From contig MFOZ01000019.1 in NCBI GenBank assembly GCA_001784055.1, forward strand, positions 18,593 to 82,592: a stretch of 64,000 nt of DNA. The letters run 5' to 3'. A program made the translations under genes and the position numbers. How positions within the stretch are numbered: the first letter of the stretch is position 1; each line of letters opens with the position of its first letter. Shown here piece after piece: positions 12,859 to 48,689 of this stretch. This stretch comes from Candidatus Levybacteria bacterium RIFCSPLOWO2_01_FULL_42_15. GTDB taxonomy: Bacteria > Patescibacteriota > Microgenomatia > Levybacterales > UBA12049. The notes below the pieces were generated by a model that ran no database searches, was not told the origin of the DNA, and worked only from the letters and a program-made list of their open reading frames with translations.

Positions 12859-13730
12859 TAAACAATTTTTCTACTTTTAAGATATTCCATGCAAGTCTGA
12901 AAGGAGAAATTAGCTAATAGGTGTTCAAACATATTGTTAACAGATATCTTATAGGGTAAAAAAAGTGGATTTTTTAAAAAACTTTCTTGCTCGTCTGGTA
13001 TATATTTTTTTGATTTGGATTTTGGCATAATGAGTTGCCAGTTGTGAATAAAAAGATTTGCTACTTCCCCCTTTTTGCTATATGCAGATAATTTTTTTGC
13101 ATAATACTCTTTTTTTAGAATGCTCCAGAAATAACTTGACCCAAAAGGAATGCCAAATCGAAATAAATTTTCTAAAGATATGCTACTTGGAAATGAAATA
13201 TCAGAAATGCTTGGATTGTAGGATTGATTTGCTACGGATACAGGTAGCTCATAAATGCCATCAAAATTATATATACGTCCTGAATTTCCATAAGTGGATG
13301 AAGAATAGAGAAAGCCCCAATCTTTTAAGATATTGTAACCCTCTTTAAAAAAAACAATATTTGGCGCCTGGAAGCCCTTTACGTGATACTTTTGCAACAA
13401 ATTTTTTGATGCTTCAAGTTCATTTTTCAGAATTTTTTCATTATCTATATAACTATGTGAATAGCCATGCCAACCTATTTCATGGCCTTCTGCTTGTATC
13501 TTTTTTAGTAATCCTGGATATAATTCTTCTAATTTAAATACAACAAAAAAGGTAATTTTCTGATTATATTTTTTTAACACATCTAAAACAAATTGTAACG
13601 CCGATACAATATAATCATTGTCAAGTTGTCGAAGCTTCGCATTTGATAAATTATACTTATTGATTTTTCTTGAAACCACCCAGGATTCAAAATCCATGCA
13701 AAGGAGGTGAGAAAAGCCATTTTTTTCCAT
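12858..13730 (-). CDS. Polysaccharide deacetylase (NodB-homology, DUF3473-type)
   Basis: N-terminal MDFESW (DVEDW-like) motif. GHEIGWHGYSH motif (NodB His-His metal site). Confidence 0.6.
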   Translation of the reverse strand: MEKNGFSHLLCMDFESWVVSRKINKYNLSNAKLRQLDNDYIVSALQFVLDVLKKYNQKITFFVVFKLEELYPGLLKKIQAEGHEIGWHGYSHSYIDNEKILKNELEASKNLLQKYHVKGFQAPNIVFFKEGYNILKDWGFLYSSSTYGNSGRIYNFDGIYELPVSVANQSYNPSISDISFPSSISLENLFRFGIPFGSSYFWSILKKEYYAKKLSAYSKKGEVANLFIHNWQLIMPKSKSKKYIPDEQESFLKNPLFLPYKISVNNMFEHLLANFSFQTCMEYLKSRKIV

Positions 13731-18846: not shown

Positions 18847-21300
18847 ATGCTTAATATAAAACAAGGTATAAAAAATCATAAAATTATTATTGCAATGGCG
18901 CTCGTTCTCTTTTCTATCCCTTTCTTTTGGCTAAAGCCGGGAGAAATAGATATGGGAGGAGACGGGGGAAGTCTGTATTTTTATGATCCTATTAATTTCA
19001 TAAAGCACTCTGCCATATTCGAAAGTCTTCCATTTGGGACAGGAGTAATAGATACGCAATTTTATTACTTGCCTTTCGTAACTCTCATCACGCTTCTAAA
19101 AATTTTTTTGTCATCGCATCTTTTAAGCATTCTGCATAATAGTACGAAGTTGGTTGTTGGTTTTCTTTCCATATATGGCATTATGAAAGTGTTGCTTTCT
19201 TTCTCAAGGGAGAAAAATGCTCTTTTACGAGAAAAATTTAAAAAAATAGAAATCGTTAGCATTCTTACAGGTATTTTTTATATATTTTTACCGGTACTTA
19301 CGATGGATGATAGGTATGTTAATCCTCTGTCAATCCATGACCAGGTATTTTTAAATCCTCTTATATTTTATCTGATGTTAAAGTTTATTCTTACAGAAAA
19401 ATGGAAATATCTCGTAATTGCATTAGGGGTTAGTCTGATTCTTTCTCATAATTTTTATATTGCCTCTCCATCTCTTTATGCATTTTATCCTTTCGCGTTT
19501 TTATTTCTCGTTCTTTATGTCAGAATTATATTAAAAAGAACATTACCAATAAAAAGGATAATAGTAGGGGTAGTTTTCTTTATTTTTCTGCATTTTTTTC
19601 ATTTGTGGCCTGAGATAGCAAACTTATTTAATTCGGGGTCCAACATCAATGTTCGAATATTTAGCAAAGAAGCATACAAACAACAGACGCAGTATTTCTA
19701 CGGCGTTATTCATATTGCAAGTCTTGCAAAAAGCATACTTTTGCCTTCAATTTCAGGAGGCGCGTGGTTGATTTTTGTCTTCATTAGTCCCCTTATTATC
19801 TTATTAGGTTTTTTGAAGAACAGGTTTAGGTCAAGACTATTTTTGCTTACAGGATTATTTTTCTTAATTACGCTTTTTCTTATTTCGGCAAAAATTTCTT
19901 ACACGAGTATAAAACTGTACGAAATGTTTTTTTTATATATACCGGGATTTGGTATGTTTCGGAATTTTTATATCCAATGGATATATGTATTTGCATTTTT
20001 TTACACGCTTATGTTCGGACAAGCGCTTTATTTAATTTACTCCTCACTTGATAATAAAAAAGTTAATCTTATTTCTCTAATGTTGGCGATCTATCTTATT
20101 GGTAGCGCTTGGCTATTTATAAACGGTCATCAATTTAATCCTCCTTATGTTGATTCAGATAATGTGAGAAGACATCTCGTTATGGATCCCGAATATGAAA
20201 AGATGCTTGAGTTTATCCGAAATGTACCATATGATGGTAAATTACTTCAATTTCCCTTTAATGATTTTAATCATCAGGTTGTTCATGGAATAGGTGATGG
20301 TGCGTATATTGGCGCCACATCAATAGGACAACTTACGGGAGTTAAGGATTTTTCAGGTTATTGGCATACGGCTCCATATAGCCAGGCATTTCTTGAGTCA
20401 AGTAAAAAAAAGGATTACGAAACATTAATAAAAATCCTTGGGCTTTTAAATATCCGTTATATTTTTTATAATTCTGATCCAAGAGTTTACGATACTACTT
20501 TCACCGGCCGACCGTTTACTTACGTAAGGCAATTTCTTCCTTCGACTCAAAAGGATTATAAGGAGTTTATAAAACCATTGGTAGGGGAGAAACTGTTTGA
20601 AGCTGGTTCTTATAGTCTCTATTTAACAAAAAAAGAATCATATATTCCTCAGATGTATATTCCTAAAGTATCAATGGCTTACAAACACAATCCAAAGTAC
20701 GATAGGTATTATGAAGGAGCATCTTCCTTTATTTTAAATAATAAACAAGATGAGAAAAGAGTGGCTTATATAGAAAAGAACGATTGTAGCGGTAAGCCTT
20801 TCCTGCAAACCTTTTGTGAAAGAAATGTTTTCTATGAGGGAGCGATGCCAAAAATATATTTTAAAAAAATTAATCCAACAAAATATAAAGTTACAATTTC
20901 AGATATACAAAATCCATTCCTTTTAGTTTTTTCAGATACTTTTAATCGCAATTGGAAACTTTTTATTGGCAAAAACAATCCCTTAGAAGAATCCAACGCA
21001 AAAATATATTTCAATGGTGAGATTAGAGAGGAAAAGTCTGAGAATATTTTTATTGATAAAAAAACTTTTGAAACAATCGGATTGAAAAATATACCTGAAG
21101 AACAACATTTTTCCGTGAACGGTTTTGCAAATGCTTGGTATGTACATCCAAAAGATATTGATATGCAACGAGAGGCGACCTTTATAGTAGAGATGATTGA
21201 TCAGCGGTCATTTTATTCTGCGCTTCTGTTATCCTTGATTGCACTTTGTGGGTTTTTTATTTGGGGAATTGTCCTTCTTCTAAGAAAACTTTTAATTTAG
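18847..21300 (+). CDS. Large polytopic membrane protein (817 aa) with C-terminal extracytoplasmic domain and terminal TM anchor; putative GT-C glycosyltransferase
   Basis: More than 12 N-terminal hydrophobic helices, a roughly 350-aa hydrophilic domain, and a final TM helix (ALLLSLIALCGFFIWGIVLLL). This architecture resembles arabinofuranosyl/mannosyl GT-C enzymes. Confidence 0.45.
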   Translation: MLNIKQGIKNHKIIIAMALVLFSIPFFWLKPGEIDMGGDGGSLYFYDPINFIKHSAIFESLPFGTGVIDTQFYYLPFVTLITLLKIFLSSHLLSILHNSTKLVVGFLSIYGIMKVLLSFSREKNALLREKFKKIEIVSILTGIFYIFLPVLTMDDRYVNPLSIHDQVFLNPLIFYLMLKFILTEKWKYLVIALGVSLILSHNFYIASPSLYAFYPFAFLFLVLYVRIILKRTLPIKRIIVGVVFFIFLHFFHLWPEIANLFNSGSNINVRIFSKEAYKQQTQYFYGVIHIASLAKSILLPSISGGAWLIFVFISPLIILLGFLKNRFRSRLFLLTGLFFLITLFLISAKISYTSIKLYEMFFLYIPGFGMFRNFYIQWIYVFAFFYTLMFGQALYLIYSSLDNKKVNLISLMLAIYLIGSAWLFINGHQFNPPYVDSDNVRRHLVMDPEYEKMLEFIRNVPYDGKLLQFPFNDFNHQVVHGIGDGAYIGATSIGQLTGVKDFSGYWHTAPYSQAFLESSKKKDYETLIKILGLLNIRYIFYNSDPRVYDTTFTGRPFTYVRQFLPSTQKDYKEFIKPLVGEKLFEAGSYSLYLTKKESYIPQMYIPKVSMAYKHNPKYDRYYEGASSFILNNKQDEKRVAYIEKNDCSGKPFLQTFCERNVFYEGAMPKIYFKKINPTKYKVTISDIQNPFLLVFSDTFNRNWKLFIGKNNPLEESNAKIYFNGEIREEKSENIFIDKKTFETIGLKNIPEEQHFSVNGFANAWYVHPKDIDMQREATFIVEMIDQRSFYSALLLSLIALCGFFIWGIVLLLRKLLI

Positions 21301-23781: not shown

Positions 23782-24330
23782 ATGAAAATAGGAATTGATG
23801 TAAGCCAGCTGGTATATTCTAACACTGGAGTAGCAAACTACTTAGAGAACTTGGTTCAATGTTTGCTTAAGGTTGATAAGGAGAATGAGTACGTATTCTT
23901 CTTTTCCTCTTTAAGAAGAAAATTTCTAATTTCTAATTTCAAATTTTTAAATAAATCCCAATTTTTAAATCCCAAAATTAAGATAAATACATTTAAAATA
24001 CCGCCTGTTTTATTAGATTTCCTTTGGAATAGGTTGCATATTGTACCAATAGAGTGGTTTATTGGAGATGTTGATGTATTTATTTCCTCGGATTGGACGC
24101 AGCCACCTACTAAAAAAGCCAAAAAAGCGACGATTCTGTACGATCTTATTGTGCATAAATATCCCAATGAAACGGACAAAAAAATTGTAGATACGCAAAG
24201 AAGAAGACTTACGTGGGTGAAAAAAGAATGCGATGTGGTATTTTGTATATCGGAATCAACAAAAAAGGATGCGATGGAGATTCTGGGAATTGAGAAGAGA
24301 AAGCTAAAGGTTATTTATCCCGGGATTTAA
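23782..24330 (+). CDS. Truncated GT4-family glycosyltransferase paralog (N-terminal Rossmann domain only)
   Basis: MKIGIDVSQLVYSNTGVANY... aligns with the N-domain of the downstream full-length GT4 (MIIGIDGNEANVQRRVGISEY...). It ends at KVIYPGI, the linker VVTYPGV in the full-length copy. No C-domain follows in any frame. Confidence 0.5.
   Translation: MKIGIDVSQLVYSNTGVANYLENLVQCLLKVDKENEYVFFFSSLRRKFLISNFKFLNKSQFLNPKIKINTFKIPPVLLDFLWNRLHIVPIEWFIGDVDVFISSDWTQPPTKKAKKATILYDLIVHKYPNETDKKIVDTQRRRLTWVKKECDVVFCISESTKKDAMEILGIEKRKLKVIYPGI
23921..23948. repeat. Heptanucleotide tandem repeat (AATTTCT)2(AATTTCA)(AATTTTT) inside the truncated GT4 CDS
   Basis: Direct reading of sequence 23921-23948, followed by a second AAATCCCA duplication. 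Confidence 0.8.
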
Positions 24331-24381: not shown

Positions 24382-25566
24382 ATGATAATAGGTATTGATG
24401 GGAATGAGGCGAACGTACAGAGACGAGTAGGTATTTCGGAGTACGGCTTCGAACTTCTTAAGAATTTCAAATTTCAAATTTCAAATTTCAAATTTCAAAT
24501 TTACCTTAAAAAGCCTCCCTTGCCTCATATGCCTAAGGAACGAGACGGATGGCGATATAGAATTGTTCGGCCAGAAAAGTTATGGACGCAGATAGGTCTA
24601 CCGATCGATTTGTTCTTTCATAAGCCTCGTCCGGATGTGTTTTTTAGCCCCACGCATTACGCTCCTCGTTTTTCTCCTGTTAACTGCGCAATTTCAATCA
24701 TGGACGTATCGTATTTGCGTTTTCCTTCTCTGTTTAATGCGTCGGATTTGTATCAGCTCAAGAACTGGACCGCTTATTCGGTAAAAAAAGCAGTGAAAAT
24801 CTTTACCATAAGTAAATCAAGTAAAAATGATATAATAAAAGCGTATGGTGTGTCTGAAGAAAAAGTAGTGGTGACATACCCGGGAGTAAAATTCAAAAAT
24901 ATGGTTCGACAAACTCACCATCCTGAGCAAAGTCGAAGGACAATGCAAAATTCAAAAGTACTAGAGAAATACGGAGTTGATAGGAATTATGTTCTTTTTG
25001 TTGGGACGCTGCAACCAAGGAAGAACATTGAACGGCTCATCGAAGCCTTCAGCCTTGTTTGTCATCCTGAACTTGTTTCAGGATCTCAATCAAAACGAGA
25101 TTCTGACCTTCGTCAGAATGACATCCAACTTATAATCGTTGGCAAGAAAGGATGGCTGTACGAGGACATCCTAGAGGCGCCCAAAAAATTTGGAGTAGAA
25201 AATAGCGTCAAGTTTCTGGAGTTTGTTCCAGAAGAGGATCTTTCGAGCCTCTATCAAAATGCTCTTTTTTTTATTCTTCCCAGTTTATACGAAGGGTTTG
25301 GGTTGCCGGTGCTTGAGGCAATGAGCTACGGGTGTCCTGTAATAACCAGTAATGTGAGTAGTCTTCCTGAAGTAGGGGGAGATGCGGTTCTGTACGTAGA
25401 TCCGTTAAGTACAAGTGATATCTGTGAAAAAATGAGGATGATATTTTTGGATGAAAAGCTTCGCGCCGAACTTCAAAAAAAGGGATACGAGCAGGTTAAA
25501 AAGTTCAACTGGGAAAAAACAGCAAAACAGACACTTGATATTTTAGAAAATCTCGCGCAAAAATAA
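24382..25566 (+). CDS. GT4-family (glycosyl transferase group 1) glycosyltransferase
   Basis: N-domain MIIGIDGNE... C-domain motifs LFVGTLQPRKNIERLIEAF, FILPSLYEGFGLPVLEAMSYGCPVITSNVSSLPEV (E-x7-E). Confidence 0.85.
   Translation: MIIGIDGNEANVQRRVGISEYGFELLKNFKFQISNFKFQIYLKKPPLPHMPKERDGWRYRIVRPEKLWTQIGLPIDLFFHKPRPDVFFSPTHYAPRFSPVNCAISIMDVSYLRFPSLFNASDLYQLKNWTAYSVKKAVKIFTISKSSKNDIIKAYGVSEEKVVVTYPGVKFKNMVRQTHHPEQSRRTMQNSKVLEKYGVDRNYVLFVGTLQPRKNIERLIEAFSLVCHPELVSGSQSKRDSDLRQNDIQLIIVGKKGWLYEDILEAPKKFGVENSVKFLEFVPEEDLSSLYQNALFFILPSLYEGFGLPVLEAMSYGCPVITSNVSSLPEVGGDAVLYVDPLSTSDICEKMRMIFLDEKLRAELQKKGYEQVKKFNWEKTAKQTLDILENLAQK
24463..24504. repeat. Heptanucleotide tandem repeat (AATTTCA)x5 plus AATTTAC inside the GT4 CDS
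   Basis: Direct reading. Encodes NFKFQISNFKFQIY. The unit length is not a multiple of 3. Confidence 0.9.
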
Positions 25567-30137: not shown

Positions 30138-31598
30138 ATGATACGCAAAAAAGAAATAATAGCTCTTTTTCTTATTCTTACTTTGGGTTTTATCGTTCGG
30201 CTCTATAAGTTTACTAATCCTATTGCCGACTGGCATTCGTGGAGACAATCAGACACGTCTTCCGTATCCAGAAACTTTGTGAAATACGGGTTTGATCTTC
30301 TTCATCCACGGTTTGATGATCTATCTAACGGCGTGTCGCTTCTTGACAATCCGAAAGGATACCGTTTCGTAGAATTTCCAATCTACAACGTGTTTCAAGC
30401 CGGACTCTTTGAGTTGTTTCATACGTTTACTATTGAAGAGTGGGGTCGATTAGTTAGTATTGCGTCAGTTTTGATTGCAACGGTTTTTCTCTATCTTTTG
30501 GTGAGGGAATATGTATCTTCTCGCGCAGGTCTTTTTGCCGCATTTTTTTACGCACTCCTTCCGTATAATATTTATTTCGGTCGCGTTATCTTGCCGGATA
30601 CGCTGATGGTTGCCTTCATGCTTGGGGGGTTATATTTTTTTGATGCGTGGACAAAAAAAATCAAAACAAATCAAAAACGCGTTCAGGCACTCTTATTTTT
30701 TATGCTCGCGGTTCTGTTTACAGCATCTGCTATTCTTATCAAACCGTTCGTTCTATTCTACGGATTAGCTTTTGTTTATATTCTCATAAAAAGATTTGGA
30801 TGGCGTTTACTGAAGCGATGGGATATATGGCTGTTTGCGATTCTTTGCCTTTTGCCCTTTGTTCTTTGGAGAGCGTGGATGCAGCAATATCCGGAAGGAA
30901 TTCCTAGAAACGATTGGCTATACAATGGGAATGGGATCCGTTTTAGAGGAGCATTTTTTTGGTGGATTTTTGCGGAACGAATTGGAAAAAACATGCTTGG
31001 ATATTGGGGCCTTCCCATTATTGTTATTGGACTTATTTCTAAAATAAAAGAGAAAGATACTTGGTTCTTTTTTACCTTTATTATTGCGTCTCTTCTTTAT
31101 ATAAGCGTATTTGCAACAGGGAATGTTCAGCATGATTATTACCAGATTCTTATTGTGCCAACGCTTGCCATTTTTTTTGCCAAGGGAGCAGAAGCAATCG
31201 TTGAATTTTCTTCCCATGCCTTCCATAAATTCCTCGCCTTAGCAACGTTTGCGATCTGTGTTGTCTTTATGTTTATGTTTGGGTGGAGAGAAATCAGGGC
31301 ATTTTACAACATTGATCATCCGGAAATTGTTGAAGCAGGGCGCGCGATTGACGCGCTTACCCCAAAAAATGCAAAGATTATTGCGATATACAACGGAGAT
31401 ACAACCTTTCTCTATCATACAAATAGACAAGGATGGCCAGTCTTTGAAAGATCTATAAAAGATTTTGTAAAGGCAGGGGCAACCCACATAGCGTTTGTAA
31501 ATCAAGGAGAAAAAGAATCAAACTTTGCAAATGAATTTAATACGGTCAAAGTAACAGAACGATATGCAATATTTGATCTTACAAAAAAGAAAAAATGA
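30138..31598 (+). CDS. GT-C-type membrane glycosyltransferase, family 39/ArnT/PMT-like
   Basis: Start IRKKEIIALFLILTLGFIVRLY..., then a WRQSDT loop motif, then about 11 TM helices. Start taken at the Met after the upstream stop. Confidence 0.6.
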   Translation: MIRKKEIIALFLILTLGFIVRLYKFTNPIADWHSWRQSDTSSVSRNFVKYGFDLLHPRFDDLSNGVSLLDNPKGYRFVEFPIYNVFQAGLFELFHTFTIEEWGRLVSIASVLIATVFLYLLVREYVSSRAGLFAAFFYALLPYNIYFGRVILPDTLMVAFMLGGLYFFDAWTKKIKTNQKRVQALLFFMLAVLFTASAILIKPFVLFYGLAFVYILIKRFGWRLLKRWDIWLFAILCLLPFVLWRAWMQQYPEGIPRNDWLYNGNGIRFRGAFFWWIFAERIGKNMLGYWGLPIIVIGLISKIKEKDTWFFFTFIIASLLYISVFATGNVQHDYYQILIVPTLAIFFAKGAEAIVEFSSHAFHKFLALATFAICVVFMFMFGWREIRAFYNIDHPEIVEAGRAIDALTPKNAKIIAIYNGDTTFLYHTNRQGWPVFERSIKDFVKAGATHIAFVNQGEKESNFANEFNTVKVTERYAIFDLTKKKK

Positions 31599-32881
31599 AC
31601 ATTTTAGTTGTTTCCTCTTTTTTGCCGTATCCTTTGTTTTCAGGGGGACATATCCGCCTTTACAGCATTATAAAAGAGCTTTCTAGAAGGCATACCATAA
31701 CGCTTATCTGCGAAAAGAGAAAGCATCAGACAGAAGATGACGTAAAAGAGGTTGAGAAAATTTGCGAGGTAATCTGGGTTGAGCGAAAACAACAATGGTC
31801 AATAAAGAATATTCTTCAAGCAGGATTCTCTCCATACCCTTTCTTAATGACAGGGCACACAAATTCGGAAATGAAGAAAAGAATAGAGGATGTTTTGAGA
31901 CAAAGAAAAATCGATGTAATCCACATTGAGACATTTTACGTCTACCAAAACATGCCCCGGGTTTTGATTCCGACCGTTTTGGTGGAGCATAACATAGAGT
32001 ATTTAGTTTATAAACGATTTGCCGATTCGGCTCCAAAATTCATAAAACATCTTCTCCTTTTGGATATATTAAAGATGCGGTATTGGGAGCAAAAATTTTG
32101 GCAGAAAGCAACAAAGCTTGTTGCCGTATCGGAGCAGGAAAAAAACATGATGACAAGAGACGATGTAGCAGTGGTACCAAATGGGGTAGACGTAAATAAG
32201 TTCAAAGTCAGGCGTTCAGAGTTAAAAGTTAACGATAGAGAAAAGAGAGTTTTATTTATTGGGGATTTTCGGTGGATTCAAAATAGGGATGCGCTTGAAT
32301 GGATTCTCAAAGAGATATGGCCGGAAATAAGTTCAAAGTTCCCCACTTCGCCAAGGCTTCGAGGGGCGAGCGAAGTTCAAAGTTCCCCAGCCTCGCCAAG
32401 CGAAGCCTCGCCAAAGGCGGGCGAAGCAGGGCGGGCAAAGTTATTGCTTTGGATTGTAGGCAGAGACATTCCAAGTTCGCTTAAAAAGCTCACTAAGGAT
32501 GATAGCATTATGTTTGATGAGAACGCATCAGAAAATACTACCGAAATCTTCAAAAAAGCGGACATATTGCTTGCGCCGATACGCATTGGCGGTGGGACAA
32601 GCTTTAAGATTTTAGAGGCTATGGCAAGCGGTGTTCCTGTGGTGACAACGTCTCTTGGTATAGAAGGAATAGGCGCAATAAAAAATAAAGAAGTACTTAT
32701 TGCGAATACATCATATGAATTTGGAGAAGAAACAAATAGAGTTCTGCGAAATCCCCATCTTTATAAAGAGCTTGCAGGAAACGCGCGTAAACTCATTGAA
32801 GAGAAGTATGATTGGGACGTTATTGTTAAAAAACTGGAAGATGTATATACGTCTGCCGTATATCATGCAGGGGCAATATGA
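31595..32881 (+). CDS. GT4-family glycosyltransferase carrying an in-frame GC-rich repeat-element insertion
   Basis: N-domain MNILVVSSFLPYPLFSGGHIRLYS. C-domain LLAPIRIGGGTSFKILEAMASGVPVVTT. A low-complexity insert, SSKFPTSPRLRGASEVQSSPASPSEASPKAGEAGRAK, interrupts the EIWPEI...LLLWIVG junction. Confidence 0.8.
   Translation: MNILVVSSFLPYPLFSGGHIRLYSIIKELSRRHTITLICEKRKHQTEDDVKEVEKICEVIWVERKQQWSIKNILQAGFSPYPFLMTGHTNSEMKKRIEDVLRQRKIDVIHIETFYVYQNMPRVLIPTVLVEHNIEYLVYKRFADSAPKFIKHLLLLDILKMRYWEQKFWQKATKLVAVSEQEKNMMTRDDVAVVPNGVDVNKFKVRRSELKVNDREKRVLFIGDFRWIQNRDALEWILKEIWPEISSKFPTSPRLRGASEVQSSPASPSEASPKAGEAGRAKLLLWIVGRDIPSSLKKLTKDDSIMFDENASENTTEIFKKADILLAPIRIGGGTSFKILEAMASGVPVVTTSLGIEGIGAIKNKEVLIANTSYEFGEETNRVLRNPHLYKELAGNARKLIEEKYDWDVIVKKLEDVYTSAVYHAGAI
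32329..32442. repeat. Tandem pair (44 bp + 70 bp) of a GC-rich intragenic repeat element; second copy at 48419-48487
   Basis: Both units start aagttcaaagttcccca. Unit 2 (ttcaaagttccccagcctcgccaagcgaagcctcgccaaaggcgggcgaagcagggcgggcaaagtt) matches the murE copy (ttcaaaattccccggcctcgctccgcgaagcctcgccaaaggcgggcgaagcgggacgggcaaaatt) nearly base for base. Confidence 0.85.
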
Positions 32882-34996: not shown

Positions 34997-36121
34997 ATGA
35001 AGGTTGCATTAGTGTACGACCGATTGAACAAATGGGGAGGAGCGGAGCGAGTGCTTCTATCGCTTCGCGAACTTTTTCCAGATGCTCCATTGTATACATC
35101 GGTGTATCATGCTAAGAGAGCTTCCTGGGCAAAAGAATTTGTTGTTAAATCGTCTTTTCTCCAACGATTCCCATACGCGGCATCTTCCCACGAACCATAT
35201 GCAATATTCATGCCTTTGGCGTTTGAGAGTTTTTCCTTTGATAGATACGATTTAGTTATTTCCGTAACCAGCGAAAGCGCAAAGGGTATTATCACAAAGC
35301 CAAACACGATACATATTTGCTATTGCCTTACCCCCACAAGATATTTATGGAGCGGTTATGATGAATATTTTACAAGTTCAGCTGTCCGTTTTTTGTCAAA
35401 GCCTGCTGTTTCTTATTTGAGAGCTTGGGATAAAATTGCAGCTCAAAGGCCAGATGCATATATTGCGATTTCAAAAGAGGTTCAAAAAAGAATTAAAAAA
35501 TATTATGAAAGAGAATCAACTGTTATATATCCTCCCGTAGCAATAGACGGTAGAAGATGGAATAGAGAAGATAGTAATTTGAAGATAGAAGATAGAGTGT
35601 CGAAAGGATATTTTCTTATTGTATCTCGTTTTGTCCCGTATAAAAAAATCGATATCGCAATAAAGGCCTGTAGCCGGCTCAAGTTGCCTCTTAAAATAGT
35701 TGGTTCCGGAGCACAAGAGGGGTATCTTCGGTCTCTTGCGGGGCCTACGGTTGAGTTTCTTGGTAACTTGACTGACAAAGAGTTACTAAGCTATTATAAG
35801 AATAGTTGGGCACTCCTTTTTCCGGGGCATGAGGATTTTGGCATAGTAATCGTGGAGGCGTTAGCAAGCGGAACGCCTGTAATTGCGTTTAAGAATGGGG
35901 GTGCCCTTGAAATAATAAAAGAAGGGAAAACAGGGGCATTCTTTTATCCACAGACAGTGGAATCATTGGAGAGCGTATTGCAATCGTTTAGTCCGGTTGA
36001 CTATCAAGCGGACGAATGCAGAAAAAGCGTTATGCAATTTGAAAAAAAGAGATTCCTAAAGGAGTTCAGGCAAGCAGTTGAGGCGCTTTTTCTTGCGCAC
36101 AAAAAGAAAAAGATGATATGA
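34997..36121 (+). CDS. GT4-family glycosyltransferase
   Basis: MKVALVYDRLNKWGGAERV. FPGHEDFGIVIVEALASGTPVIAFKNGGALEII. Confidence 0.8.
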   Translation: MKVALVYDRLNKWGGAERVLLSLRELFPDAPLYTSVYHAKRASWAKEFVVKSSFLQRFPYAASSHEPYAIFMPLAFESFSFDRYDLVISVTSESAKGIITKPNTIHICYCLTPTRYLWSGYDEYFTSSAVRFLSKPAVSYLRAWDKIAAQRPDAYIAISKEVQKRIKKYYERESTVIYPPVAIDGRRWNREDSNLKIEDRVSKGYFLIVSRFVPYKKIDIAIKACSRLKLPLKIVGSGAQEGYLRSLAGPTVEFLGNLTDKELLSYYKNSWALLFPGHEDFGIVIVEALASGTPVIAFKNGGALEIIKEGKTGAFFYPQTVESLESVLQSFSPVDYQADECRKSVMQFEKKRFLKEFRQAVEALFLAHKKKKMI

Positions 36122-47429: not shown

Positions 47430-48689
47430 ATGTGGCAAGAGATTAAGAATGTATATCACTTGCTGGTTGCGGTTGCGGCGCAGGTGTGGTTTGGGTTTCC
47501 GTCAAGAAAGCTTAAGGTGATTGGGGTTACCGGAACCGATGGAAAGACAACTACGGTGAACCTGATTTATCATATACTACACACGTGCGGATATTCGGTC
47601 TCCATGATTTCAACCGTTGGAGCAATCATTAACGGAGAAAAAAAAGATCTTGGTTTTCATGTGACAAATCCTTCCTCATGGCAATTAAATTCCTTTATCA
47701 AGAAAGCGGCAGAAAAAAGTAGCTATCTTGTTCTTGAGGTTACATCTCACGGAATAGATCAGCATCGTATTTTTGGCATTCCTTTTGCAATTGGAGTGAT
47801 GACCAACGTTACAAACGAACATCTAGACTATCACAAAACGTATGATCGCTATCTTCAGACAAAAGTAAAATTGTTAAAACGATCCCGTATTGCCATTGTA
47901 AATCAGGATGACGGATCGCATAAAGCGATTATGCTGCTTCTTAAAGATGGAAACCGAATGGATCGAAAAGTAATTACGTATGGGAAGACGAAGTCTCCCA
48001 TGGTGAATCCGCTTGTCTACGCCTTTAAGACAAAATTGATCGGTAATTTTAATCGATCAAACGAGGGAGCTGCAATCGCAACTGTTCTTGCCCTAAACGT
48101 TAAGGAATCTTGCATCAAAGCCGCTTGTGAAAGCTTTGAGGCTCCAATTGGACGACAACAGGTAGTATATGAAGGCGATTTTACCGTAATGATTGATTTT
48201 GCCCACACCCCCAATGCTATTGAAGAGTTTCTACATTCGATCAAACCTGGTGTCAAGGGGAGACTCATTCACGTTTTTGGAAGCGCGGGAGAGCGCGACA
48301 GAAAGAAAAGACCAGAAATGGGAAAGGCATCAGCTAACTATTCGGATGTTATTATCTTAACTGCAGAGGATCCCCGGTCGGAATCGGTTGCAAAAATCAT
48401 AAACGAGATTGAATCAGGAATCGTTAATAATTCAAAATTCCCCGGCCTCGCTCCGCGAAGCCTCGCCAAAGGCGGGCGAAGCGGGACGGGCAAAATTCAA
48501 AGTGCAAAATTGTTCAAAATATCAAACAGACAGGAAGCAATCAATACTGCAATTAAAATAGCGCAAAAGGGAGATTTTGTTCTCGTTACGGGAAAAGGGC
48601 ATGAGAAGTCTATGAACTTTGGACGCGGAGAAATACCGTGGAGTGAATATGACAGCGTAAAAGAAGCACTTGTAGCAAGAAAATTATGA
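47430..48689 (+). CDS. murE: Mur ligase, MurE-like (UDP-MurNAc-L-Ala-D-Glu:diamino-acid ligase) with very short N-terminal domain and an in-frame repeat-element insertion
   Basis: P-loop VIGVTGTDGKTTT at residue about 33. EDPR (DNPR-like) motif. C-terminal insert KFPGLAPRSLAKGGRSGTGKIQSAK, encoded by the GC-rich element. Confidence 0.7.
   Translation: MWQEIKNVYHLLVAVAAQVWFGFPSRKLKVIGVTGTDGKTTTVNLIYHILHTCGYSVSMISTVGAIINGEKKDLGFHVTNPSSWQLNSFIKKAAEKSSYLVLEVTSHGIDQHRIFGIPFAIGVMTNVTNEHLDYHKTYDRYLQTKVKLLKRSRIAIVNQDDGSHKAIMLLLKDGNRMDRKVITYGKTKSPMVNPLVYAFKTKLIGNFNRSNEGAAIATVLALNVKESCIKAACESFEAPIGRQQVVYEGDFTVMIDFAHTPNAIEEFLHSIKPGVKGRLIHVFGSAGERDRKKRPEMGKASANYSDVIILTAEDPRSESVAKIINEIESGIVNNSKFPGLAPRSLAKGGRSGTGKIQSAKLFKISNRQEAINTAIKIAQKGDFVLVTGKGHEKSMNFGRGEIPWSEYDSVKEALVARKL
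48419..48487. repeat. GC-rich intragenic repeat element (copy inside murE), same family as 32329-32442
   Basis: See the 32329-32442 repeat feature. About 75% GC in roughly 30% GC surroundings. Flanked by aattcaaa(a/g) direct repeats. Confidence 0.85.

Follow-up and report, generated by a model that had tools for sequence, protein, structure and literature searches.

Small GC-rich hairpin repeats lie in frame within heptanucleotide arrays of a GT4 glycosyltransferase gene and murE in a Levybacteria genome

A 64,000-nt stretch of the genome of Candidatus Levybacteria bacterium RIFCSPLOWO2_01_FULL_42_15 (GenBank assembly GCA_001784055.1, contig MFOZ01000019.1, positions 18,593 to 82,592; hereafter the window) contains two protein-coding genes that carry short GC-rich hairpin elements in frame. 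Both genes, and all features described at them below, are read on the forward (+) strand. The first host gene (31595..32881) is an intact open reading frame (ORF) of 428 aa, the homologs of which carry PF00534/PF13439 and are named GT4, a glycosyltransferase family. The second, murE (47430..48689), is an intact ORF of 419 aa with homologs that contain PF08245/PF02875 and go by the name MurE. For both proteins, the best homologs were found in Levybacteria/Levyibacteriota, which belong to the candidate phyla radiation (CPR).

In the GT4 gene, a heptamer array of the type (AGTTCAA)n (32330..32340, read SSKF) is followed by a 30-nt GC-rich hairpin element of 10 codons, here termed A (CCCCACTTCGCCAAGGCTTCGAGGGGCGAG; 32341..32370), by further heptamer units (CGAAGTTCAAAGTT; 32371..32384), and then by a 51-nt element of 17 codons and 75% GC, here termed B (32385..32435), which forms a long imperfect hairpin. 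The heptamer unit CAAAGTT stands directly 3′ of B (32436..32442) and is a direct repeat of the unit on its 5′ side. In murE, a second copy of B (48440..48490; 51 nt, 17 codons, 78% GC) lies between an (AATTCAA)-type heptamer array on its 5′ side (48426..48439, read NNSKF) and the array CAAAATT CAAAGTG CAAAATTG TTCAAAA on its 3′ side (48491..48519, read KIQSAKLFK).

The two sites have 67 nt in common (32376-32442 and 48431-48497) with 88% identity, and a 28-nt core, GCGAAGCCTCGCCAAAGGCGGGCGAAGC, is identical at both. When 3 mismatches were allowed, no match to this core was obtained in 100 shuffles of the window. The GT4 and murE sites were the strongest GC islands of the window, with a GC content of 75-80% in B versus 38% across the window, and were also its most stable local folds, at about -30 kcal/mol compared to -26 kcal/mol for the next best (GT4 copy, -29.9 kcal/mol, z = -3.4; murE copy, -29.3 kcal/mol, z = -2.1). 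The shared DNA reads as SSPASPSEASPKAGEAGRAK in GT4 and, in a different frame, as FPGLAPRSLAKGGRSGTGK (KFPGLAPRSLAKGGRSGTGK) in MurE, and both ORFs are intact across the inserts. An earlier, sequence-only reading of this DNA had reported the repeat in both genes, the open host frames and the shared core read in different frames, all of which were borne out. It had also placed the repeat in DNA of about 30% GC, for which 38% was measured, and had given the unit as about 70 bp, whereas the insertion unit is 51 nt. The 44+70-bp tandem pair that it described in GT4 does consist of two related elements, but the upstream one is the distinct element A, and heptamer units lie between the two. The flanking AAAGTT/AAAATT turned out to be direct repeats, namely units of a pre-existing heptamer array, and to form no part of an inverted terminus. 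The aattcaaa-like direct repeats that it saw in the flanks are present, but as heptanucleotide tandem arrays that also occur in orthologs without the element.

Synteny of the GT4 locus is kept in three genomes (L019, L020 and L021), which together with the window form a graded series. The L020 ortholog has only an uninterrupted array (AGTTCAA AGTTGAA AGTTGAA AGTTCAA AGTTGAT). The L019 ortholog has the array and element A (CCCCACTTCGCCAATGCTTCGAGGGGCAAG) and differs by exactly 10 codons, and the window and L021 have the array, A and, with 17 further codons, B. L021 comes from an independent ENA assembly (groundwater, SRR1658344), and its GT4 site is identical to that of the window. The units between A and B align with AAAGTCCACAGTTCAAAGTT of L019, and deletion of B in silico yielded ASEVQSSKLLLW, equal in length to ASKVHSSKLTLW of L019, which places B exactly at AAAGTT^CAAAGTT in GT4. 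Judged from this alignment, B is a precise 17-codon insertion relative to its syntenic ortholog. Since the net gain over L019 is exactly 51 nt, no extra target duplication is needed, and the 7-nt direct repeats that flank B (CAAAGTT/CAAAATT) are a unit of the pre-existing array. The corresponding site of the murE copy is AAAATT^CAAAATT.

Alignments of 120 orthologs for each of GT4 and MurE placed both insertion points in hypervariable loops, at which the orthologs are graded from no insert through heptamers only to various GC hairpins. Some orthologs have no insert at all (MurE ESGIKKSGVLRV; GT4 KVKSSLKLWIVG). Many have NSKFKIQN, NHELRIKN or SSKFKVQSSKF, which are heptanucleotide arrays translated in frame, the NSKFKIQN type representing (AATTCAA)n, and the remaining orthologs carry assorted GC-rich inserts within heptamer arrays. 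Different GC hairpins occupied the same array position in other MurE orthologs (L023, L024 and L025), and hairpins of 21-23 nt were found within other heptamer arrays in other genes. The cleanly delimited inserts measured 21, 30, 33, 39 or 51 nt; the L025 MurE insert came to 29 nt, as one base is missing from the heptamer unit next to it. Orthologs that have no GC element also have arrays at the same loops, and the arrays seem to be where the elements preferentially land.

AlphaFold models were built with the ortholog alignments and had a mean predicted local distance difference test (pLDDT) score of 87.8 (MurE) and 87.9 (GT4). The insert was in both models the only segment with a pLDDT below 50, at residues 341-357 of MurE, between helix 320-332 and strand 361-363, and at residues 252-279 of GT4, between helix 228-247 and strand 282-288. 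Both window inserts are predicted to occupy surface loops of otherwise confident models. Low complexity and a position in loops are also what selected protein features would have, that is, flexible Ala/Gly/Pro/Ser/Arg linkers that arose by convergence or are ancestral. This explanation is effectively refuted because the same DNA gives unrelated peptides in different frames, and we consider it extremely improbable; orthologs without the insert exist, and the 46-aa peptide of A and B had 0 matches among 1.84 billion representative proteins in an exhaustive HMMER search.

A third copy of B was recovered by a metagenome scan with an end-specific pattern, the search for more copies being a check that the sequence-only reading had called for. 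It lies in frame in the recJ gene of a related population (L022) and has the same heptamer flanks. B was found in three unlinked genes (GT4, murE and recJ) with 88-98% identity and in two reading frames, the murE copy differing from the GT4 copy at 6/51 positions and from the recJ copy at 1/51. Every copy is intragenic, starts with CCCC, and stands at AAARTT^CAAARTT inside a heptanucleotide array.

A six-frame peptide query against 5.8 billion proteins, a search that is weak for short low-complexity queries and that missed the protein P0121, returned only P0241, which is half RecJ and half MurE. This chimeric protein is encoded by the 1.2-kb contig L026 (ENA ERZ28563641 scaffold_414550). The 5′ side of the contig is recJ, 94% identical to L022, the 3′ side is the murE-murC region of the window with 99.6% identity, and the halves meet exactly at element B (755-835). 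For a short-read contig of 1.2 kb, mis-assembly is the simpler account, and L026 is most simply a repeat-induced mis-assembly. The join across the repeat shows that the recJ and murE copies of B coexist in the population of the window. Separately, a second assembly of this murE encodes a fragment (P0001, 299 aa, 99% identical) that diverges and ends in ...KKRCNMRE, some 35 codons before the element is reached, which may be another assembly break near the repeat.

That the repeat does yield at least one chimeric contig could suggest that the inserts themselves are artefacts of assembly. The identical sequence was obtained in independent assemblies, however, and the host frames continue properly on both sides. 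The inserts could also be real but untranslated, either removed at the RNA level or bypassed by the ribosome as in T4 gene 60 or the mitochondrial byp elements. The gap in T4 gene 60 is 50 nt, and 51-58 nt flanked by identical codons resembles it. All inserts here are nevertheless multiples of three nucleotides and free of stop codons, no stop codon is present at the take-off position, and a ribosome that hopped from one flanking 7-nt repeat to the other would skip 58 nt and lose the frame, which makes bypass unlikely; translational bypass was rejected on these grounds. We give hardly any weight to either an artefact or an untranslated insert.

Element A is dispersed among Levybacteria. Copies in a MurE gene (L030, CCCCACTTCGCTAAAGCTTCGTGGGGCAAG) and in another GT4 gene (L031) had 77-87% DNA identity, in host proteins that were only about 55-60% identical. 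The L030 copy is read PHFAKASWGK, in a frame that differs from that of the window GT4; the L031 copy is read in frame 0, and the copies in L019 and the window GT4 in frame +1. A GT4 paralog in L020 carries a 39-nt version of A with its own nested hairpin.

B proved to be an A-like 30-nt shell with a 21-nt inner hairpin at its GCGAAGC apex. The inner module (CTCGCCAAAGGCGGGCGAAGC) occupies 32407..32427 in GT4, where it lies between two GCGAAGC heptamers, and an identical copy occupies 48462..48482 in murE. B minus the module leaves the 30-nt shell, which aligns with A at 22/30 positions, and none of 2000 shuffles aligned as well. The outer stem of B (GCCTCGCC...GGCGGGC) repeats the inner hairpin (GCCTCGCC-AAA-GGCGGGC), and the 39-nt version of A in L020 is arranged likewise, as a shell with a nested hairpin. 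GCGAAGC is the classic DNA mini-hairpin of extraordinary stability (PMC13037366).

One genome per GTDB species was scanned with the 25-nt inner core of the element (GAAGCCTCGCCNNNGGCGGGCGAAG), and 20 matches were obtained in 18 loci, where about 0.1-0.5 matches would be expected by chance according to a rough, informal estimate. The matches were from Omnitrophota, Ignavibacteria, Zixibacteria, Planctomycetia, a gammaproteobacterium, Anaerolinea and several CPR lineages; the single match in high-GC Anaerolinea may be due to chance. At least 9 matches were inside long ORFs, and the hosts identified with Pfam were GyrA, TopA, DprA, Rho and an AlkD-like repair protein, each with the core in frame. 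The long ORFs use three sense frames (EASPKAGEA, RSLAKGGRS and AKPRQRRAK) and one antisense frame (ASPAFGEAS), three of the translations being used among the Pfam-identified ORFs, and a fifth translation, FARLWRGF, occurs in shorter ORFs. The flanks of the core in these loci are unlike those in the window: some have heptamer arms of (CAGTCAT)n or (AAATCCG)n, and others have the widespread shell "GTCATnnnGAGC...nnnATCTC" with variable apical inserts. With such various frames and flanks, the inner hairpin acts like a module able to nest within a variety of host palindromes.

GyrA and TopA with the core were both from a Daviesbacteria metagenome-assembled genome (MAG), where (CAGTCAT)n and (CAGTCGT)n heptamers flank it; Rho was from a gammaproteobacterial MAG, and DprA and the AlkD-like protein were from Levyibacteriota MAGs. 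The loci of these in-frame copies of the 25-nt core are L007 (2151-2184), L015 (6190-6226), L011, L005 and L004.

Together, the heptamer arrays, the nested GC hairpins and the cross-phylum 25-nt core point to a common copying mechanism or to horizontal spread. The sequence-only reading had proposed a foreign or selfish origin from the GC content, and the occurrence of the inner core in several phyla makes such an origin plausible. A more far-reaching proposal, which we put forward tentatively, is that the 21-nt module (a 14-nt hairpin plus the duplicated GCGAAGC) and the 30-nt shell belong to a phylum-spanning class of ultra-small, self-nesting elements that insert with a 7-nt duplication, repeated insertion and excision generating the heptamer arrays. 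With a 7-nt duplication, each event would add a multiple of 3 nt (14+7, 23+7, 44+7). If this were true, a widespread hairpin-directed insertion machinery would be acting inside essential genes (GyrA, TopA, Rho, MurE and RecJ) of uncultivated bacteria.

The conservation of the core across phyla, the two copies of GCGAAGC and the very stable hairpins (about -30 kcal/mol, z = -2.1 to -3.4) are features that a selected nucleic-acid signal might have, such as a site on DNA or RNA to which a protein binds, an element that stabilises mRNA or a site of translational pausing. Such a signal would have to be dispensable in the close orthologs without the element, to serve in unrelated host genes at unrelated positions, and to work in both orientations relative to the host ORF. 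Against Rfam, neither site had a match better than chance (E > 6), promoter and terminator scans of the element sites found none, and the hairpin had no compensatory changes among the sequences compared. A selected signal is in our view improbable. An intrinsic terminator, a CRISPR repeat, an integron attC site, an intein and an intron were each considered and rejected. Searches of phage and plasmid collections returned nothing meaningful, and a scan of viral contigs gave 0 matches.

The explanation that we favor, with a probability of roughly 0.7, is that these are small, nested, dispersed hairpin repeats that are copied at the DNA level into heptamer arrays and tolerated in permissive loops. 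The Levybacteria arrays, (AGTTCAA)n and (AATTCAA)n, occupy permissive surface loops and would be translated as SSKFKVQ-/NSKFKIQ-type peptides, and the 30-nt A and 51-nt B hairpins would have been copied into them at AAARTT^CAAARTT. B would have arisen by nesting, with the 21-nt module placed at the GCGAAGC apex of an A-like shell so that GCGAAGC now stands on both sides. The elements themselves would be non-coding, non-autonomous dispersed repeats, presumably neutral or selfish, that spread at the DNA level, most likely by insertion, through a process in which hairpin or heptamer DNA is recognised. The intragenic copies would be those that add multiples of three bases; the elements are GC-rich and so contain no stop codon, and flanking heptamers can restore the reading frame because 7 = 1 mod 3. 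They would land where the protein tolerates a disordered linker of 10-17 residues, and would then be translated.

A process without dedicated machinery could account for the same distribution: ectopic recombination or gene conversion between arrays, or template-switching at hairpins, with the heptamer arms providing the homology. The flanks of the murE and recJ copies are near-identical (left, TTAAWAATTCAAAATT; right, CAAAATTCAAA), for which reason recombination or template-switching stays the main rival, and the more divergent GT4 copy is in a different array variant (AGTTCAA). The recJ-murE junction of contig L026 lies exactly at the repeat and might be the product of genuine recombination, although the contig is more simply a mis-assembly. 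On the other hand, a homology of 11-16 nt is short, B is also found in an array with a different unit sequence, and the inner module and A occur with unrelated flanks, the module even in unrelated phyla. We regard recombination or template-switching as unlikely overall, if a serious competitor.

Several observations weigh against copying by insertion, as we favor it. No more than three B copies are known from any source, with 1 match each from the metagenome scan and from the peptide search in six frames, and no further element copy was found in the 9.4 kb upstream of the window. No transposase or other mobilising gene was recognised on the ORF map of the 64-kb window, which was read by eye with no Pfam run, as recombination would also have it. 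A target-site duplication is indistinguishable from the pre-existing heptamer array. Between the murE and recJ copies, 15/16 and 12/15 flanking bases are the same, and the copied unit may include heptamer arms or may have moved by recombination and not by transposition. The hairpin of B demonstrated no covariation, a comparison of 3 sequences only and hence uninformative. All six frames of the GT4 copy are free of stop codons, but this is expected from its composition (P = 0.43), and the argument that stop-free frames are a sign of selection was dropped for that reason.

Related structures were also present elsewhere in the window. A glycosyltransferase ORF (24382..25566) has a perfect (AATTTCA)x5.7 array near its N-terminus (24463-24502), in frame as NFKFQISNFKFQI, and (AATTCAA)-type heptamers around a different hairpin, CACCATCCTGAGCAAAGTCGAAGGAC, at 24889-24960, read KFKNMVRQTHHPEQSRRTMQNSK. 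A double hairpin at 25058-25125 (GTCATCCTGAACTTGTTTCAGGATCTC...GAGATTCTGACCTTCGTCAGAATGAC), in frame as VCHPELVSGSQSKRDSDLRQND, is near-identical in L019 (at 19544) and L016 and belongs to the GTCATnnnGA(G/A)C...ATCTC shell family, which has variable apical inserts and occurs in many phyla. Period-7 arrays were found inside ORF 23782..24330 ((AATTTCT)x4.3, 23921-23990) and, in degenerate form, inside ORF 34997..36121 ((ATAGAAG)x7.7, 35543-35596). The third most stable hairpin of the window (18906-18965; -26.4 kcal/mol, 45% GC) lies at the start of an 817-aa ORF (18847..21300) and is unrelated to the element by sequence. In one strain (L027, about 13236-13396, equivalent to about 3845 in the window), a 160-nt AT-rich insertion stands between two sugar-biosynthesis genes that overlap convergently; the window, L028 and L029 are without it.

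Repeats of this kind have practical consequences. They create chimeric contigs such as L026 and inflate protein length variation within orthologous groups, and they can confuse the annotation of MAGs, alignment and protein clustering. The hosts described here include core cell-wall and DNA-metabolism enzymes, and no description of such elements in CPR was found in the literature.

Among known systems, the sequence-only reading had likened the repeat to Rickettsia palindromic elements (RPE), which are described as about 100-150 bp in a review summary (PMC10969869, summarising Ogata et al. 2000 Science 290:347). The likeness holds in part. A DNA repeat that lies in frame in unrelated genes, in differing frames, in surface loops and with orthologs that are without it behaves like the Rickettsia elements, which are also palindromic repeats in frame in unrelated housekeeping genes of a reduced-genome bacterium, compatible with the protein fold, and presumed to be translated selfish DNA. 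RPE differ in being confined to Rickettsia and in having a conserved peptide and a fixed frame, whereas the elements here are 30-51 nt, are read in several frames and have no conserved peptide. They are furthermore GC-rich in an AT-rich genome, self-nested, located inside heptamer arrays, and hosted by Levybacteria of the CPR. The two are set apart by this description (size, frame and host), and no sequence relationship between them was shown.

The same reading had offered a miniature inverted-repeat transposable element (MITE) as an alternative. MITEs have terminal inverted repeats, target-site duplications and a cognate insertion sequence (reviewed in PMC10969869, PMC3116915 and PMC3733652), and REP/REPIN sequences are extragenic, with a GTAG or CGTC head and a linked RAYT transposase (PMC3733652). 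Like these, the elements here are short, non-autonomous, hairpin-forming, multi-copy repeats. The MITE assignment was not established: the element forms a single imperfect palindrome from end to end (CCCC...GGG), in which no separate terminal inverted repeats can be defined, and no target-site duplication could be demonstrated. In contrast to REP/REPIN, the elements are intragenic and have no GTAG/CGTC head, and no RAYT-like ORF was recognised on the window map, which was read by eye with no Pfam search.

Short, mobile, GC-rich palindromic clusters in a very AT-rich genome, some of them inside protein-coding genes, are also a feature of mitochondria. GC clusters are reportedly found in yeast mitochondrial genomes, and the byp elements of Magnusiomyces are said to be skipped during translation, with no requirement to be in frame. 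The Levybacteria elements, by contrast, are bacterial, always measure a multiple of 3 nt and are stop-free.

In architecture, the closest likeness is to the cyanobacterial elements SDR1-8, which are reportedly dispersed hairpin elements of about 21-27 nt that often lie within heptameric STRR arrays and are found self-nested. Very small hairpin elements inside heptanucleotide arrays were likewise found here (in GT4, murE and recJ, and in L020, L019 and L005), as were elements nested within copies of themselves (B and the L020 version of A). The SDRs are described in PMC5861425 as restricted to Nostocaceae, whereas the hosts here are CPR/Levybacteria, with the core in several other phyla, and the two are likened by architecture only; in-frame residence in essential genes is what stands out here. 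The best-supported placement from these comparisons is that the elements would match RPE in function and SDR/heptamer repeats in architecture while belonging to neither family. If this is confirmed, CPR/Patescibacteria would join Rickettsia and Nostocaceae as hosts of tiny, selfish, intragenic hairpin repeats.

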